From Escherichia coli (GTDB lineage Bacteria; Pseudomonadota; Gammaproteobacteria; Enterobacterales; Enterobacteriaceae): 64,000 bases of DNA. The stretch lies in NCBI RefSeq assembly GCF_003334765.1, contig NZ_QOWT01000001.1; one strand, given 5' to 3'. The notes beneath the pieces were generated by a model. That model ran no database searches, was not told the DNA's origin, and saw only the letters and a list, made by a program, of their open reading frames with translations. Of this stretch, positions 31,813-41,716 are shown piece by piece. How positions within the stretch are numbered: position 1 is the first letter of the stretch; every line of letters starts with the position of its first letter. The translations under genes were made by a program, and so were the position numbers.

Positions 31813-32577
31813 TCAGTTCAGGGCTTTCTTCAGATGTTCCGCCAGCTCGGCAATGGCCTCCGGCGAATCGTTATCGATAATGATGTGCTTACGTTCTGTT
31901 TGCGGCGGTACGCGAATGCCGACCAGTTCAGCAAGTGGCGCGCTCTGGCTCCAGTCAATATCACTTGCCTGCCACTGATTTACCGGTTTTTTACCCGCGC
32001 CGAGAATGGCTTTCATCGAAGGAATGCGTGGCACGTTAATATCGGAGGTGACGCAGAGCACGGCTGGAACAGAGAGTTCAATAACTTCAACATCATCTTC
32101 AAGCGTGCGTTCAATCACCAGTGTATTGCCCTGACGCTGAATAGCACTCACTGCATTAATCACCGGAAGTTGCAGAATTTCTCCGACCAGCAAGCCAACC
32201 TGCTGGGCATAAAGGTCGCCGGAACCTTCACCAAAGATCAGTAAATCGAAGCCGATCTTTTCAATTGCTGCCGCCAGCGCTTTTGCGGTATCGAGAGGCA
32301 GTGCATGTTCAAGTTGCGCATCCTGCACCAAATACAGGCTGTGCGGCCCGCGGGATAGCACGTCTTTGCGCACTTTCGAGTTCTGCAACAATGAGCCGCC
32401 AACGGTCAGCGCGGCTATCTCATCGTCATCTGTTGCGAGCTGGCTTGCAGCTTCAATGGCATTGAGATCGAACTGGCTGATTTTGGCGTCGGCATTGTCG
32501 AAATTCAGGGTGTATTCTGGAGTGACAACAATGTCCTGTTCTTCAGGCACCAGCTTAAAGCAGGTTATTATTTTCAT
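31813..32577 (-). CDS. ydiQ: Electron-transfer flavoprotein beta-subunit homologue (FixA-like)
   Basis: ORF track 31813..32676; start at ATG 32577 (MKIITCFKLVPEEQD...), 254 aa. Confidence 0.92.
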   Translation of the reverse strand: MKIITCFKLVPEEQDIVVTPEYTLNFDNADAKISQFDLNAIEAASQLATDDDEIAALTVGGSLLQNSKVRKDVLSRGPHSLYLVQDAQLEHALPLDTAKALAAAIEKIGFDLLIFGEGSGDLYAQQVGLLVGEILQLPVINAVSAIQRQGNTLVIERTLEDDVEVIELSVPAVLCVTSDINVPRIPSMKAILGAGKKPVNQWQASDIDWSQSAPLAELVGIRVPPQTERKHIIIDNDSPEAIAELAEHLKKALN

Positions 32578-32892
32578 GATTTCTCCTGTGAGTCGCATAC
32601 GGAACCATCTCCGATGGAAGGTAAAAATGGCCTGAAAATAGTGTGCGATAGCGGTGCGGGGTTTTCGACGGAGCAAGCTGTTTTCCTTGCCAACAATCTT
32701 GCAAAAAAAATGCGATCGCTAAAACAAAAGTGCAATTTGCGGCAATATAGTTATTCCATGACCGTACAATCTTGCATTCAGTGTAAATAATCTTGTTTAG
32801 CTCTCGCTAAACGCGGTTGTATAACCGCAATACACGCCGTATTTTATCCGGCATATATTGTTTTTGCTTGCTCATGGAATAGGGAGGTTGTC

Positions 32893-33804
32893 ATGTATCA
32901 ACGCTGTTTTGATAACGCCAGTGAAACGCTGTTTGTCGCCGGTAAAACGCCACGGCTTTCACGTTTTGCATTTAGCGATGATCCAAAATGGGAGTCCGGA
33001 CATCACGTTCATGACAATGAAACCGAGTTGATTTACGTCAAGAAAGGGGTTGCAAGGTTTACCATCGATTCTTCGTTATATGTCGCACATGCGGATGACA
33101 TTGTGGTGATAGAACGCGGCAGGCTGCATGCGGTGGCCTCTGACGTTAACGATCCGGCAACGACGTGTACCTGTGCGCTGTACGGCTTTCAGTTTCAGGG
33201 GGCTGAGGAAAATCAGCTACTGCAACCGCATTCTTGTCCGGTAATTGCCGCGGGGCAGGGAAAAGAAGTCATAAAAACCTTATTTAATGAGCTAAGTGTG
33301 ATTTTGCCGCAAAGTAAAAATAGCCAAACATCTTCGTTATGGGATGCATTTGCCTATACGTTAGCCATTCTTTACTACGAAAATTTTAAAAATGCTTATC
33401 GTTCGGAGCAGGGGTATATTAAAAAAGATGTTCTGATAAAAGATATTCTTTTCTATCTGAATAATAATTATCGCGAAAAAATCACTTTAGAACAGTTATC
33501 GAAAAAATTTCGTGCCAGCGTCAGTTATATTTGCCATGAATTTACCAAAGAGTATCGTATTTCCCCTATTAACTATGTTATTCAACGGCGTATGACGGAA
33601 GCAAAATGGTCACTCACTAATACTGAATTATCACAGGCAGAGATCTCCTGGCGTGTGGGTTATGAAAATGTCGATCACTTTGCCAAACTGTTTTTGCGCC
33701 ATGTCGGTTGTTCGCCCAGCGATTACCGTAGACAATTTAAAAACTGTTTTGCGGAACAAGAAATCCTATCTGAATTTCCTCAACCGGTAAGTCTTGTTGG
33801 ATAA
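32893..33804 (+). CDS. ydiP: AraC-family transcriptional regulator (cupin N-domain plus HTH)
   Basis: 303-aa ORF; C-terminal AraC HTH (ISWRVGYENVDHFAKLFLRHVGCSPSDYRR). Confidence 0.9.
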   Translation: MYQRCFDNASETLFVAGKTPRLSRFAFSDDPKWESGHHVHDNETELIYVKKGVARFTIDSSLYVAHADDIVVIERGRLHAVASDVNDPATTCTCALYGFQFQGAEENQLLQPHSCPVIAAGQGKEVIKTLFNELSVILPQSKNSQTSSLWDAFAYTLAILYYENFKNAYRSEQGYIKKDVLIKDILFYLNNNYREKITLEQLSKKFRASVSYICHEFTKEYRISPINYVIQRRMTEAKWSLTNTELSQAEISWRVGYENVDHFAKLFLRHVGCSPSDYRRQFKNCFAEQEILSEFPQPVSLVG

Positions 33805-33846: not shown

Positions 33847-34998
33847 TTATTTGTTCTGATAGTCTTTCAGGATCTGCCGACCTGCTACGTAAATCATAAT
33901 TTCGTCTGTACCGCCGCCGATACGTTCACAACGGACATCACGCCAGAAGCGGGAGACGCGCGCCTCATCGGTATAGCCCAGACCGCCCATGATTTGAATC
34001 GCATCATCAATGACTTCCATTGCGGTACGTGCACAGTACAGTTTTGCCAGCGCCGCGCTGGTGCGCAGTGACTGATGCTGATCGGCTTGCCATGCCACTT
34101 TCAGCACCATGTTGCGCATGTTGTCGATCTTAATCGCCATCAGCGCCAGTTTTTCCTGGATCATCTGGTTATGACCAATGGGCTTACCAAAAGCGATACG
34201 TTGGTTGGCATAGCGGGCGGCATCTTCAAAGGCGCATTCGGCAAAGCCGGTGCTGCGCGCGGCGTTGATCAGGCGCTCCATCTCAAAGTTGTACATCACA
34301 TTGAGGAAACCCATTCCTTCTTCGCCCACCATGTCGCTCTCTTCAACCTCCACGTTGTCGAGATAGACTTCGCAGGTGCTGAGCATATGCCAGCCGATTT
34401 TATGCAGCGGGTTAATCTTAATGCCGGGCTTACTGGAGTCGACCCACCACAGGGTGAAGGCTTTTTTGGGATCTTTCGGTTGCGGATCGCGCGCCAGCAC
34501 CAGCATATACGGGTACTCTTTCGCACCGGTAATAAAGGTTTTTTGTCCGTTGATGTAGACCTTGCCGTTTTTACGCGTGTAAGTGGTAGTGGCACTGTTG
34601 TTATCTGAGCCAGCACCTGGTTCCGTCAACGCCAGGGCATAGGCGGGATCACCCGTTTCCAGGGTGCTCTCTGCCGTTTTACGTAGCTGCTCTGCAGAAC
34701 CGAAACGGCGCATACTGTGAATACATTGACCGTTGGTAATTAAAAATGCCGGAGCACCGCATTTTGACACTTCCATCAGCGCCAGCATTTGGGTGACGTA
34801 ATCCGCAGGGATACCACCAAATTCTTCCGGCACGCCAAGCATGGAAATACCGTTATCCGCCAGCGCCCGCATAAACTCACGCGGATATGTCCCGTTTTGA
34901 TCGCAGGTGCGGAAATACTCTTCCGGAAAGTTAGTCGTAATCAGTTCGCGAATACTGGCCAGCAGCAGTTCTTGTTCTTCAGTTAAAGAAAAATCCAT
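33847..34998 (-). CDS. ydiO: Acyl-CoA dehydrogenase
   Basis: ORF track 33847..35052; start at ATG 34998 (MDFSLTEEQELL...), 383 aa. Confidence 0.92.
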   Translation of the reverse strand: MDFSLTEEQELLLASIRELITTNFPEEYFRTCDQNGTYPREFMRALADNGISMLGVPEEFGGIPADYVTQMLALMEVSKCGAPAFLITNGQCIHSMRRFGSAEQLRKTAESTLETGDPAYALALTEPGAGSDNNSATTTYTRKNGKVYINGQKTFITGAKEYPYMLVLARDPQPKDPKKAFTLWWVDSSKPGIKINPLHKIGWHMLSTCEVYLDNVEVEESDMVGEEGMGFLNVMYNFEMERLINAARSTGFAECAFEDAARYANQRIAFGKPIGHNQMIQEKLALMAIKIDNMRNMVLKVAWQADQHQSLRTSAALAKLYCARTAMEVIDDAIQIMGGLGYTDEARVSRFWRDVRCERIGGGTDEIMIYVAGRQILKDYQNK

Positions 34999-35011
34999 CA
35001 TTATACTCCTG

Positions 35012-36607
35012 TTAATGAGCCGCTTCAGGCAGGACAAAACCCATCGCCGCATCGATAAATAATCTTTCGTCCATCAGTTTGAGTTCTGGCGAAATCACTG
35101 GGGTGAAATCCATTTTGTCGAGAATATCTTTTTGTAAATCGACGCCAGGGGCGATTTCGATTAAATGCAGGCCGTCTTCTTTCAGCGTGAATACTGCGCG
35201 CTCAGTGATATAACGAACATCCAGCCCTCGCTCGAGAGCGATTTTTCCGCTGAAAGTAATTTCCGGTAGTTCCCGAATAAATTTCTTCACCCGTCCTTCC
35301 TGGACGATATTTAATTTGCCGTCGGTAATTTCTGTTTTTAAACTGCCCGCAGTTAATGTGCCGCAGAAAATGATTTTCTTCGAAGTGGCACTGATATCAA
35401 TAAATCCACCGGTGCCCATGATTTTACCATTGAATTTATGCACGCCGACGTTACCGTGCTGGTCGACTTCAGCAAAACTCAAATAACAAACATCCAGACC
35501 GCCACCGTGATAAAAATCAAACTGGGACGTCATATCCAGAATGGCACGGGTATTCACGTTCGCGCCAAAGGCGATCCCCTGTGAAGTAATTCCGCCAATC
35601 GGACCTGTTTCTACCGTCAGAATAAAGTCATCAGCACAACCTTCTTCTCGGGCGACCAGGCCAATGCCGTCAGCAATACCGACGCCGACATTCCCCACCG
35701 CGCCTTTACGCATTTCGAATAATGCGCGCCGCGCAACTAATTTACGTTGGTTTAGGGGCAGGCTAAGTTTGGTACTGTCATCAAGGGTGAAGTCACCAGA
35801 AATAAAGCGGTTAACCGGTGCACCGCCATACAGTTGGGTTTGATCCGGATCGACCACCACAATATCCACCAGATAACCCGGAATACGGACAGATTTAGGA
35901 TGCAGCGTGGCTTTCTTAACCATTTTCTGCACCTGCATCATCACAATACCGCCGTTATTGTGCACCGCCTGGGCAATAACCAATGCGTCGAGATACATCA
36001 CCTCATCTTCAAAAGTGGCGTAGCCTTCACTGTCGCAGGTGGTAGCGCGAATGAAGGCAATATCTGGCGCAATCGCTTTGTAATAGAGATATTCTTTGTT
36101 ATCAAACTCGACCAGTTTAATCAGGTCTTCTTTAGTGACTTCATTCAGTTTGCCGCCTTGCTGGCGTGGATCGACAAATGTCCCGATGCCAATATCACTA
36201 ATAATACCAGGCTGGTGGGCTGCGGCGGCGCGTAAGGTTTGTGTAAGTACACCTTGTGGGTAGTTATAAGCAATAATTTTATTTTGTTCTGCGAGTTCAG
36301 AAATACGCGGCGATTGTCCCCAGTGACCACATAATGCCCATTTCACCAGACCTTCTTGCGCCAGAGGACTAATACCACGGTCGGCGCGATCGCCAAGCCC
36401 TGTTGGACTAATAATCGATAAATTACGTGGTGTTTGAGTCTGTTTATATTTATCAGCAAGAGCAGTAATTAACGTGGTGGCTTCCAGAATACCGCCTCCA
36501 GCGCCTAACACACAAAGTGTTGCTTCGTCGGGAATATAATTCACCGCTTCCTGTGCCGACAGGACCGGCACTCGTCCATTAATACGAGGTGGTTTTACAG
36601 GTTTCAT
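35012..36607 (-). CDS. ydiF: Family I CoA-transferase (fused alpha/beta; acetate/short-chain acyl-CoA)
   Basis: 531-aa ORF. Confidence 0.92.
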   Translation of the reverse strand: MKPVKPPRINGRVPVLSAQEAVNYIPDEATLCVLGAGGGILEATTLITALADKYKQTQTPRNLSIISPTGLGDRADRGISPLAQEGLVKWALCGHWGQSPRISELAEQNKIIAYNYPQGVLTQTLRAAAAHQPGIISDIGIGTFVDPRQQGGKLNEVTKEDLIKLVEFDNKEYLYYKAIAPDIAFIRATTCDSEGYATFEDEVMYLDALVIAQAVHNNGGIVMMQVQKMVKKATLHPKSVRIPGYLVDIVVVDPDQTQLYGGAPVNRFISGDFTLDDSTKLSLPLNQRKLVARRALFEMRKGAVGNVGVGIADGIGLVAREEGCADDFILTVETGPIGGITSQGIAFGANVNTRAILDMTSQFDFYHGGGLDVCYLSFAEVDQHGNVGVHKFNGKIMGTGGFIDISATSKKIIFCGTLTAGSLKTEITDGKLNIVQEGRVKKFIRELPEITFSGKIALERGLDVRYITERAVFTLKEDGLHLIEIAPGVDLQKDILDKMDFTPVISPELKLMDERLFIDAAMGFVLPEAAH

Positions 36608-36749
36608 TGTTAATTCCTGATTCAGATGTGATTTTCCCTACGCCAAATGGAGAATTAGCGCACAGAGACTCACGAAATATTTTTATTAAATACGATTGAA
36701 TATATTTTTTAGTTCGGCGGGGAGGGTGTTCCCGCCGAAATATTATTGC

Positions 36750-37508
36750 TTATGCCTGGTGTAAAATAGTTAATACCGTGCGCAAATCATTTACCGAGAT
36801 TTGCCCTGGCGCAGACGCTTTTTTTACCGCACCAAAAGTTGCCGCCGAGCCAAATACTTCACCAGCCAGACGAGAAATTACGCCAGTTTTTGCCATCGAC
36901 ATCGTGATAATTGGACGATCGGCATACTGCTCCTGCATCTCCAGGGTCGCGGCAAGCAACGTCAGCACATCGCTGGTACTTTGCGGCATCAGCGCAATCT
37001 TAGGAATATCGGCGTCGAAGGATTGCATTTTGCGCAGACGGGCAATGATTTCTTCGGCTTCCGGCGTTTTATGGAAGTCATGGTTGGACATGACTACTTT
37101 CACATCATGCGCGTGGGCGTAGGCGACGGTTTCTTTAACCTGATCATCACCGGTAAATAACTCCAGATCGATCATATCAACCAGGCCGCTGTCGATGGCT
37201 GCACGATTGAGTGCAATATAAGCCTCGGTGGAAATCGCCTGCTCGCCGCCTTCTTTGGCACTGCGGAAGGTAAACAGCAGCGGTTTTTCTGGCATGGTCT
37301 CACGGAGAATTTTTGCTGCCGCCATGACAGACTCCACATTGGAGAGGTCGGCATAGTGGTCCACACGCCATTCCAGAATATCAAAGTCCGCTTCACGATA
37401 GGCGAGAGCTTCGGATTTCACGCTGGCGATATCTTTCGCCATCAGCGAGACGATGATTTTAGGTGCGCCCGTACCAATGACGAGATCTTTTACAGTTACG
37501 GTTTTCAT
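36750..37508 (-). CDS. aroD: Type I 3-dehydroquinate dehydratase
   Basis: 252-aa [30 protein letters not shown]. Confidence 0.97.
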
Positions 37509-37538
37509 TTTTTACCCTTTCTGCACGCGGTCAGCCTG

Positions 37539-38405
37539 TCAGGCACCGAACCCCATGACCTGTTTAACATATTCCAGAGGGAAATCTTTGCCAGTCCATA
37601 ATGTGAACTGTTCAGCCCCTTGCCACAACAACATGCCGTATCCATCAATCGTTTTGCAACCAGCTTGTTGCGCCTGCTGCAATAACTTCGTCATATGCGG
37701 GTTATACACGCATTCAGTGACCAGAAGTCCCGGATGTAACAGACTGATATCATTAACCAATGATTCATTCTCAAGGGGTTTCATACCCACTTTTGTGCCA
37801 TTGGTTAAAATGTCGGCGGAAGCCAGGGCTTCAGCAAAGGCTTGCTGATCGGCGAGATCGGTGACCGTGACGACACAATCGGTGTTTTCATTAACCCGCT
37901 GCGCGAAGGCGAGGGCTTTATCGAAGAACTCATCCCGACGGTTAAAGAGTTTAATTTCTTTTAAACCTTCAATTGCCCCCTGCGCGCCAATTGCCGTTGA
38001 GGCACCACCGGCCCCTAACAGCACCATCGTTTTGCCTTTGATATCAAAACCGCTCTCTTTAATGGCGCGAATATGGCCCGTGCCGTCGGTGTTATAGCCA
38101 CGCAGATAGCCATCATCATTAACGATGGTGTTGATGGCCCCCACCAGTTTGGCAGCTGGTGTTAATTCATCAACATATTCACACGCCAGTTGTTTGTTCG
38201 GCATCGATACACCAGTTCCGCGCATTTTGAGGGCTTTTAATCCTTCAATTGCTCCAGGAAAGCTATCGTTATCCACTTCGAAGGCCATATAGGTAAATGG
38301 CAATCCCGCTTTTTCTAAGGCTTTATTCTGCATTTCGGGCGATAAACTGTGGCGGATAGGATAGGCCATCAACCCAATCAATTCGTATTTTGCGGTAACA
38401 TCCAT
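37539..38405 (-). CDS. ydiB: Quinate/shikimate dehydrogenase (NAD(P))
   Basis: 288-aa ORF; AroE-like fold with GAGGAS Rossmann motif. Confidence 0.95.
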
Positions 38406-38416
38406 AATTAACTCCT

Positions 38417-39682
38417 TTAACCTCTATGCTTAATTGTGTTTAACCGGGTGCAAAATTTACGCTCGCCAAACCGCACATCATTTTCAGGAATAATGAAAAC
38501 GCGGTAATAGCGGATAAAAACAATAATTGCGGTAATCAGGGCCAGCAGCGCGAAAGTAAAATCGAGAACAATGATATATTGCAGGCCGATGTTCGACAGA
38601 TAACCGGTAATCAGTGGAATAACAAAGTTAGCCAGTCCACCCATCATCATATAAATACTGGTGACTTTGGCTTTGCTTTTGGGAAAAAACTCTGACATGA
38701 CCGAAACGCCGAGCTGTAAAATGCCGCCAGCTGCTGAGAAACCGATAACAAAGGCTCCGGCATTGCACACCAGTGGAGAAGGGTACAGGTAGATAATGGC
38801 TGCTGTTATTGTTGCCAGTGCAGAGTTAAATACATTAGCCCAGATGGGCCGGACCATTTTTTTCAGTAGTGCGGCAAAAATAAAGACACAGACCAACGAG
38901 CCCATACTGTAATAAGAGATGGTTTTTAATGCCTCAGCTTCTGACATACCAGCAAAAGCCATCGCATATTTGGGCATCCACACCACAATCACATAAAAGG
39001 TCGAGAATGCGGCTACACCGAACAGTACCGATGAAACACCTTCCAGCCAGACTAACGGTTTGCTGTTCATTTGCGGTAATTCATTAGTTACGCTGGCGTC
39101 CACCAACTGGCTGGGGAATTTGCTTTTCAACAGCATCAGCGTGATCAGTACAAATAGAATACCCGGAATAATCAGCCCATAGCCGTACCAGATATTATTG
39201 AGCAACATATAGCTCACCAGCATTGGGTAGAACATTTGCCCAAATGACACCATCGCTTTAACCAGTATGACCGCCGAACCAGAGGCTTTCGGAAAGCATT
39301 CCATGAGCGCGGGGTAGCCACCCGTATCCAGCGCTGAGTTAGCGATACCTACGCACACTGCCAGACCGTAGGCGAGAGTTAAATTCGGGCAAGCGGGAAT
39401 ACCAAAGAAGAATAGCAGATACATTATTACTGCCATTAATATCACCGCCCGACGACCAAACTTATCGGAGATCACACCGAAGAATAAAATACTGATCAAT
39501 CGCCCCAAACCGATACCGGAAATTAAGTAGGCAATGCCCGCGTTGTCAGTGGAAAACTTTTCCGCCAGAGATGACATATTTTGGGCAAGCGTAATAACAC
39601 TAATGCCGTGCAGGAAGTAGCTGAAGTAAATACAAAGAACAGCCAGGATAAATGGCGTGCTGAAAGCCTTATTTTGAGACAT
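38417..39682 (-). CDS. ydiN: MFS transporter
   Basis: ORF track 38417..39688 begins at GTG; first ATG at 39682 (MSQNKAF...), 421 aa, 12-TM-like. Confidence 0.88.
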
Positions 39683-39908
39683 TTTCACAGCTCCTTGCTG
39701 AAAGATAATTTCGTTACCGTACGTATTGTTCTCCGACGGTTTACATAATTACTATACTGAAGATGATTTTCCCTGGGTACATGGCATAAAGTTTATGTTT
39801 CCAGGAATATTGCATGTCATAGTTTGTTTTTGATCGCGATTTTCCTTAGTTAGCGCAGAAAGAGTTATTTATCCGTAAGATCTTGCATGACCTGAAAAGA
39901 ATATTGCA

Positions 39909-41579: not shown

Positions 41580-41716
41580 CGTGTAATGGCTGCATGAAAT
41601 AAACAATAAAATATAAATAACATTATCAGCCTGCTGACGGCTTGAAGAGAGTCACAGTATCTTGTGCAACATTATTGGAAAGAGTGAGGGGCGAGGTAGC
41701 GAAGCGGAAAAATGTT

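Follow-up and report, generated by a model that had tools for sequence, protein, structure and literature searches.

In a 64,000-nucleotide stretch of Escherichia coli contig NZ_QOWT01000001.1 (hereafter the window), the divergently transcribed genes ydiQ (minus strand, 31813-32577, with its ATG at 32577) and ydiP (plus strand, 32893-33804) are separated by a 315 bp spacer (32578-32892) carrying a repeated sequence word, which we examined as a candidate regulatory element of the surrounding ydi genes. To the right of ydiP lie ydiO, ydiF, aroD, ydiB and ydiN, all on the minus strand (33847-39682), followed by ydiM, ydiL and rprA; gene names in the window were checked by comparison with RefSeq E. 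coli K-12. The word, the 11-mer ACAATCTTGCA, occurs in two exact plus-strand copies (32693-32703 and 32766-32776) 73 bp apart, and AATCTTG is found at 32789-32795 of the same spacer, in agreement with an earlier sequence-only reading of this DNA both in the coordinates of the direct repeat and in the placement of all three words between the divergent genes. No further copy of ACAATCTTGCA was found in the window with one mismatch allowed. Counted over the whole window, the 11-mer is uninformative with regard to chance, with 2 matches at up to one mismatch against 1.76 expected. An exact 11-mer repeat within a single 315 bp region has an expectation of ~0.01 by our own arithmetic and, since 64 kb holds dozens of spacers, the pair in one genome is unremarkable and only marginally non-random. 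That the repeat words are non-random follows from comparison across genomes, where they are kept in 40 of 40 loci and in phased pairs, rather than from the single-genome count.

The ortholog set comprised one genome per species, yielding 40 ydiP loci from Escherichia, Citrobacter, Kosakonia, Serratia, Symbiopectobacterium, Brenneria, Dickeya, Prodigiosinella, Yersinia and other genera, with YdiP identities from 99% down to 58%. ydiQ is divergent from ydiP at every one of these loci, and an ATCTTG core is present at the corresponding places in all 40 (one outlier, L034, was inspected separately). The sequence-only reading had asked for conservation of the repeats in orthologous spacers and had named its loss, together with absent YdiP binding in vitro, as grounds for rejection; the core is instead retained throughout. 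The spacers range from 314 to 911 bp in length and are unalignable outside a few blocks. Further, 21 kb loci of six other genera were retrieved through exact look-up of the YdiP protein, giving, together with E. coli, seven genera in which the island fadK-ydiTSRQ / ydiP / ydiO-ydiF-aroD-ydiB-ydiN is syntenic. Within E. coli, the spacer is at least 99% identical in 5,249 of 5,367 genomes, and a 901 bp query that includes coding flanks (32300-33200) reaches at least 99% in only 2,382 of 5,369. In E. coli strain G5 (NZ_CP060065.1, 2163943-2165619), the ydiQ/ydiP region is found in two pieces with an insertion sequence (IS1A) transposase annotated between them; this IS1 insertion lies in or beside the putative operator region described below, and the strain could be a natural regulatory mutant.

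Alignment of the conserved blocks resolved four half-sites in the spacer, all on the plus strand. On the ydiQ side, half-site 1b (CCAACAATCTTGCA, with eight conserved A directly after it, 32690..32710) holds the first 11-mer; it is the top match in the window to a position weight matrix (PWM) built from sites 1b, 2 and 3 (21.9 bits), and its segment AAcaATCTTGCAAAAAAA is at least 90% conserved from Escherichia to Yersinia. Its partner in the ydiQ-side composite, half-site 1a (GCAAGCTGTTTT, 32673..32684), is of a GTTTT type and forms the half closer to the promoter; 21 bp separate its G at 32680 from the later G of site 1b, and half-site 1a reads AAt.TGTTTT in 32 orthologs, aligned without gaps, as well as in the seven genera. 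From a core-anchored alignment, the conserved block on this side spans ~45 bp and reads CGAC..g..AAt.TGTTTT..TT.C.AAcaATCTTGCAAAAAAA. On the ydiP side, half-site 2 (CGTACAATCTTGCA, 32763..32776; 19.9 bits), the distal half of a pair, holds the second 11-mer, and half-site 3 (TAAATAATCTTGTTTA, 32784..32799; 15.0 bits), of a TTGTTT type, follows exactly 21 bp later as the promoter-proximal half. Site 3 contains the AATCTTG word, which the sequence-only reading had located correctly but had taken for a partial third copy; it is a full half-site, and its form in distant genera, ACAATCTTGTT, matches the 11-mer more closely than the E. coli version does. In most of the 40 loci, the sequence TAt.ATCTTGCA of site 2 recurs at about -120 relative to the ydiP start codon, and the conserved block on this side, TAt.ATCTTGCA-N8-aAAtAATcTTGTTt, corresponds to sites 2 and 3 and is followed by GtT.tAta. 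No inverted repeats coincide with the half-sites, which are all on the same strand and lack dyad symmetry.

The spacing of these half-sites indicates which of them belong together. Site 1b tracks the ydiQ side of the spacer, and at most loci sites 2 and 3 are some 100-125 bp away from the ydiP ATG. The distance from 11-mer to 11-mer is 73 bp only in Escherichia, C. amalonaticus and Kosakonia; it rises to 251 bp for members of the C. freundii group and to ~330 bp for Serratia, Yersinia and Brenneria. Sites 2 and 3 are 21 bp apart in every lineage with both cores. Given that the 73 bp spacing is lineage-specific while the 21 bp spacing is kept, the exact 11-mers are not functional partners; they fall into separate tandem pairs, 1a+1b on the ydiQ side and 2+3 on the ydiP side. 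Hence the AraC-like layout of direct repeats at helical-turn multiples suggested by the sequence-only reading stands, but its 73 bp pairing gives way to a true period of 21 bp. Loci L007-L013 (the C. freundii group) and L021-L031 have 180-260 bp or more of additional DNA separating the ydiQ-side composite from the ydiP-side pair, reaching up to ~600 bp in Dickeya and Prodigiosinella. The distance from the composite to the ydiQ ATG is 454 bp in Dickeya and 301 bp in Brenneria, implying either long leaders or inserted elements. Also, a palindrome, GCGATCGC (32712-32719, with a Dam GATC at 32714-17), follows the A-run of site 1b and is conserved only within Escherichia.

Both element types, composite and pair, recur in the seven genera upstream of ydiN-ydiB-aroD-ydiF-ydiO, in DNA that is otherwise unalignable. 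The ydiN-side composite (AGTTTATGTTTCCAGGAATATTGCA, 39790..39814, plus strand) has the geometry of 1a+1b, with a G-to-G distance of 21 bp (39791 to 39812), and is found as nGTTTTnGTTnCCAAnnATnTTGCA in the seven genera, 128-252 bp upstream of the ydiN ATG. Farther upstream, a distal pair (39874..39908, plus strand) consists of CGTAAGATCTTGCA (39874-87) and AAAAGAATATTGCA (39895-908), 21 bp apart; it is of TTGCA/TTGCA type in the seven genera, with a spacing of 21-22 bp (22 in Kosakonia), and the PWM likewise returned two same-strand matches 21 bp apart upstream of ydiN. Its first half-site holds the related word ATCTTGCAT, noted near ydiN by the sequence-only reading at 39879-39889: the site is real and conserved in seven genera, with corrected coordinates of 39880-39888. 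In E. coli the distance between composite and pair is 73 bp at both loci, measured from the ydiN composite to its distal pair and from site 1b to site 2. Four genera, Serratia, Yersinia, Dickeya and Brenneria, have a LysR-type gene that is divergent from ydiN and faced by the distal pair (L043 17510-18409, L044 17468-18370, L046 18033-18935 and L047 18051-18953, respectively), to which no NCBIfam family gives a specific name. This gene is missing in E. coli (window 39683 to 39908), Citrobacter and Kosakonia, which have lost it and have retained the facing pair; all four elements are kept in these genera. The E. coli distal pair now abuts the ydiM stop codon, pointing antisense into the ydiM 3' end, and a GATC at 39879-39882 overlaps its first half-site (AAGATCTTGCA).

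To evaluate the phasing statistically, we defined a relaxed half-site, AT-N-TTG-[CT]-[AT], and counted same-strand pairs spaced by 20-22 bp. Each of the 14 spacers, two from every one of the 7 genera, held exactly one such pair, against 0.0006-0.0044 expected per spacer from first-order Markov resampling; the ~182 kb of remaining sequence of the same loci held none on either strand. G-to-G distances are 21 bp for 1a/1b, 2/3, the ydiN composite and the ydiN distal pair across the seven genera, save for the 22 bp of the Kosakonia distal pair. With a trimmed PWM, 2 phased pairs were observed in the window (one of them the distal ydiN pair) versus 0.13 expected, and single matches of 8-11 bits numbered 20 versus 19.4 expected. 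Isolated PWM matches at 3594, 24499, 40928, 51665 and 56483 had chance-level scores and were discarded. The phased half-sites mark three promoter regions of the ydi cluster, those of ydiQ, ydiP and ydiN.

YdiP, encoded within the island, possesses the domains of an AraC-family protein, an N-terminal cupin domain for ligand binding and dimerisation and the family's ~100-aa double helix-turn-helix domain: Pfam identifies HTH_18 (E=1.6e-20, residues 202-281), Cupin_2 (7.6e-11) and AraC_binding (2.4e-10), and orthologs in the six further genera belong to the same Pfam families. Against NCBIfam, the nearest named matches of its DNA-binding domain are AraC, RhaS and HpaA, all far under the family cut-offs, and no specific name for YdiP was returned. 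A dimeric protein of the AraC/XylS family classically occupies asymmetric half-sites arranged in tandem at an interval of two helical turns. We consider that the repeats are probably half-sites of a conserved ydi-island operator system with YdiP as the most likely binder, a reading to which we assign a probability of roughly two in three. A search of the literature for this motif, or for control of the ydi island by YdiP, found no description of either.

Conserved blocks beside the half-sites suggest where transcription may start. A probable ydiQ core promoter occupies 32636..32669 on the minus strand, where the block AAATAGTGTGCG (32636-47) offers a -10-like CACACT/CACTAT and a conserved CGAC (32666-69) a weak -35-like TCGAAA; both blocks are at a constant ungapped distance from site 1b in all genera aligned. 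For ydiP, a probable -10 region (GTTGTATAAC, 32816..32825, plus strand; hexamer TATAAC at 32820-25) falls in the conserved columns GtT.tAta, which are at a constant distance downstream of site 3 in all genera aligned. The putative ydiN -10 hexamer, TATAGT (39751..39756, minus strand), lies in alignment columns shared with the ydiQ block, and in other genera the same columns relative to the composite read TATATT, TAAATT or TACATT. If TATAAC were the ydiP -10, the G of site 3 would lie near -37 and that of site 2 near -58; with the predicted -10 boxes, half-site centres would fall near -40/-61 at ydiP and near -44/-65 at ydiQ and ydiN. Transcription would then be predicted to begin near 32832 (plus strand) for ydiP, 32631 (minus strand) for ydiQ and 39744 (minus strand) for ydiN. 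The -35 positions are poor at the putative ydiQ and ydiN promoters. Scans for sigma-70 promoters predicted no consensus promoter in the ydiQ/ydiP spacer, nor in the ydiN spacer, which gave only two plus-strand matches with no relation to the sites; expression of ydiQ in glucose M9 is close to nil (baseMean about 8; PMC8464067), and both observations fit activator dependence.

Each element consists of two asymmetric half-sites of ~14-17 bp in tandem on one strand and 21 bp apart, their consensus being (C/A)AA-N-AATCTTG(C/T)(A/T), as would be expected of the footprint of a dimer of a two-HTH (helix-turn-helix) AraC-type protein. The composites combine a degenerate GTTTT-type with a strong TTGCA-type half-site beside the putative weak, activator-type promoters of ydiQRST-fadK and ydiN-ydiB-aroD-ydiF-ydiO. 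The pair upstream of ydiP combines a strong TTGCA-type with a weaker TTGTTT-type half-site and would imply autoregulation, and the pair farther upstream of ydiN is the fourth. In every promoter-adjacent element the weaker half-site is the promoter-proximal one. In the model that we propose, YdiP would sit on the strong half-sites; binding of a ligand, possibly a pathway metabolite, would then allow a second subunit to take the weak proximal half-site and RNA polymerase to be recruited. As a result, ydiQRST-fadK and ydiN-ydiB-aroD-ydiF-ydiO would be turned on and ydiP itself modulated, with YdiP acting as an activator.

Several observations weigh against assigning the operator to YdiP in this way. 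Half-site 1a has a negative score against the PWM from sites 1b, 2 and 3, which marks this half-site as degenerate. Relative to their promoters, the composites and the ydiP-side pair point in opposite directions, such that one geometry must work differently from the other, and the placement of half-sites beside a -35 is itself a prediction. Further, chromatin immunoprecipitation with exonuclease treatment (ChIP-exo) of YdiP-8myc in glucose M9 reported five sites (sdhC, uxaB, secG, cspA and yihQ), none of them in the ydi region (PMC8464067), and the peak list from chromatin immunoprecipitation sequencing (ChIP-seq) of YdiP-FLAG3 at 15 C is without an entry near ydiP/ydiQ (PMC9283627, Supplementary Data 12). 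The latter study renamed the protein CsiP, a cold-shock regulator acting via cspA/cspE.

Closer examination of these datasets tempers their weight. The published CsiP assignments concern the same protein and report neither binding at ydiQ/ydiP or ydiN nor a motif like AATCTTGCA (PMC8464067, PMC9283627); the text of PMC8464067 gives no YdiP motif. Positions in the ChIP-exo table follow the older U00096.2 numbering, and after correction by +777 and about +1,977 the named genes matched. Within about +/-250 bp of the five ChIP-exo peaks we found no relaxed half-site and no shared motif; 4 of the 5 peaks are RNA polymerase-bound promoters, and the one at cspA coincides with the core promoter of that gene. 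The YdiP-FLAG3 peaks are 0.8-22 kb wide and cover tRNA/rRNA genes and lpp, ompC, dnaK and ibpA, which are highly expressed (PMC9283627). Both sets of published peaks look non-specific. Given the C-terminal tags beside the DNA-binding domain, the non-inducing conditions, and peaks that are broad or motif-less, the negative ChIP results are weak; the published ChIP data do not support the operator, nor do they seriously contradict it. A genomic survey by systematic evolution of ligands by exponential enrichment (SELEX) still lists YdiP as uncharacterised, and a later paper has already taken over the label of cold shock response for ydiP. A search of the literature for YdiP SELEX or DNA affinity purification sequencing (DAP-seq) data, or for a link between ydiF/ydiO and quinate, found none. 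A peak named ydiP in FlhDC genomic-SELEX data lies in the first ydiP codons, is weak, and was set aside as unrelated to the sites.

Since the attribution to YdiP rests only on adjacency, and neither ChIP dataset shows occupancy at the ydi sites, a different transcription factor might bind them, be it the LysR-type protein of the island, an unlinked E. coli homolog or a global regulator, with YdiP acting elsewhere, e.g. at cold-shock genes. The distal ydiN pair facing a LysR-type gene in four genera, as an autoregulatory site would, lends this some appeal. However, the four elements are under clear constraint in E. coli, Citrobacter and Kosakonia, which have no LysR-type gene at the locus. The half-sites are same-strand direct repeats with no dyad, whereas LysR-type sites are dyadic (T-N11-A), and the LysR-type candidate is weakened by both the persistence of the sites after gene loss and their direct orientation. 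The motif, compared by eye, is also unlike the CRP, FNR, ArcA, FadR and IHF consensus sequences, and the published YdiP peaks that would place the protein elsewhere look non-specific. We therefore regard a binder other than YdiP as unlikely, although it is the most serious of the rival readings.

Alternatively, the repeated words might be core-promoter elements of several promoters packed in the spacer, as TTGCAA (32699-704) and TTGCAT (32772-777) each match 4 of 6 positions of the -35 hexamer TTGACA and TACAAT (32765-70) matches 5 of 6 positions of TATAAT. This explanation appears quite improbable: no conserved -10 box is present 16-18 bp downstream of site 1b or 2, where conservation ends after the A-run, the promoter scan of the ydiQ/ydiP spacer found no match, and conservation extends 6-8 bp upstream of TTG (AA-N-AATC), past a -35 hexamer. 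TACAAT is itself variable, reading TACTAT, TATTAT or TGTCAT in other genera, and a strict 21 bp phasing of four pairs at two loci is no property of promoters. The TTGCA words also equal the -12 consensus of sigma-54 promoters, and TTGCCA-N6-TTGCA at site 1b loosely resembles TGGCAC-N5-TTGCA, but the obligatory GG at -24, expected ten to eleven bp from the TGC at -12, is missing (GC at site 1b), the -24 region of site 2 is not conserved among genera, and half of the half-sites read TTGTT or GTTTT in place of TTGCA, making a sigma-54 origin very improbable. Least credible is that the repeat reflects chance or a hidden gene, whether a 58-aa open reading frame (ORF) at 32614-32790 or a structured RNA. 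While the window-wide 11-mer count equals the chance expectation and the ORF spans the sites, the conservation and phasing across genera exclude chance, and stop codons break up the ORF in a second E. coli, Escherichia sp. E1V33 and E. albertii, while Citrobacter and Kosakonia lack it. An Rfam search of 32400-33000 found no match at E<=1.

With YdiP as the probable binder, the ydi operator follows a textbook AraC-type design and is not conceptually new. As established for AraC at araI1-I2 and araO2, the gene of a cupin and double-HTH regulator diverges from the operon under its control (for YdiP, presumably ydiQRST-fadK), asymmetric half-sites (~17 bp in AraC) form a direct repeat 21 bp centre to centre, and a strong distal half-site is joined by a weak promoter-proximal one, in the ydi case beside a putative weak -35, the proximal weakness recalling araI2 versus araI1. 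Further sites lie upstream in the spacer and upstream of the regulator's own gene, as they do for AraC, and the half-site centres predicted at ydiP, ydiQ and ydiN would be the positions taken by AraC at araI. AraC fills its weak proximal site in a ligand-dependent manner, and this turns transcription on. The likeness is one of sequence layout; the half-site AATCTTGCA is unrelated to AraC's TAGCATTTTTATCCATA, the ydiQ- and ydiN-side composites are reversed relative to their promoters, and no CRP site is evident. Similarly, XylS at Pm, RhaS/RhaR and MelR are dimeric activators of catabolic operons established to use tandem sites whose proximal member overlaps the -35, and XylS half-sites carry a TGCA box repeating every 21 bp. 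Unlike XylS (TGCA-N6-GGNTA), the ydi sites have no conserved GGNTA-like second box, and unlike the ydi system RhaS/RhaR use inverted repeats; YdiP belongs to none of the XylS, RhaS/RhaR or MelR NCBIfam equivalog families, scoring far under their cut-offs.

In gene content the island resembles the established caiTABCDE/fixABCX system with its activator CaiF, in which acyl-CoA (coenzyme A) dehydrogenase, CoA-transferase/ligase and electron-transfer flavoprotein (ETF), ETF-quinone oxidoreductase (ETF-QO) and ferredoxin genes are distributed over split operons under a dedicated local activator; presumably the Ydi proteins are paralogous to CaiA and FixABCX. However, CaiF is not of the AraC family and its sites are unrelated, and the ydi island adds genes for a quinate/shikimate dehydrogenase, a dehydroquinase and a major facilitator superfamily (MFS) transporter. 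Beside fadK in Serratia (L043 565-4071) we also observed a second set comprising an acyl-CoA dehydrogenase, an MFS transporter and another AraC-family regulator, which may be a paralogous module.

Related sequences were also noted beyond the ydiN spacer. A ~40 bp block at window 41640-41680 (minus strand), AA-AATAAT(G/A)TTGCACAAGATA(C/A)TG(T/C)GACTCTCTTCAA, lies ~97-99 bp upstream of the ydiL ATG, holds one good half-site (15.3 bits) and is kept in Escherichia, Citrobacter and Kosakonia (L042 ~18829, L045 ~18787). Strong matches in the same orientation occur ~500-590 bp upstream of ydiM in Yersinia (L044 20216) and Dickeya (L046 20717, 20.3 bits). A clean partner at 21 bp is lacking (TCTTC at about +23). 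One possibility is that the regulon extends to ydiL-ydiM, another that the block serves YdiL, an Aca2-like HTH protein.

Expression studies offer further context for the proposed regulon. ydiN, ydiB and aroD are reported to be co-induced in a shikimate-accumulating strain (PMC4585142), and the transcriptome of a shikimate producer lists ydiQRST among growth-phase-dependent genes, a hint only, the direction being ambiguous (PMC4015609). In Salmonella Typhimurium, ydiP (STM1355) is among the indole-upregulated genes, with table values of 11 and 7.5 (PMC3405474), and this response is a possible hint at the compound class of the inducer. More tentatively, and in our judgement doubtfully, YdiP might be not primarily a cold-shock regulator but the ligand-sensing master switch of one ancient 12-gene island, consisting of ydiN-ydiB-aroD-ydiF-ydiO and ydiQRST-fadK and, ancestrally, the LysR-type gene. 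A shared operator would then mean that the quinate/shikimate dehydrogenase and dehydroquinase on the one hand, and the CoA-transferase, acyl-CoA dehydrogenase and ETF sets on the other, form one pathway. If true, the pathway could for instance take up a hydroaromatic acid, convert it to a CoA thioester and continue with a redox step linked to ETF; no such pathway is known to have been described in enterobacteria.

The ydi island comprises 12 genes without an established substrate, and YdiP is among the remaining uncharacterised E. coli transcription factors. The conserved operator supplies defined DNA probes and point mutations for direct tests of YdiP, a PydiQ or PydiN reporter could be used in a screen for the inducing metabolite, and the operator gives reason to revisit the cold-shock regulator label of YdiP. 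The predicted regulon would unite the "shikimate by-product" genes (ydiN, ydiB and aroD) with the "anaerobic beta-oxidation" genes, two sets that are usually treated apart.

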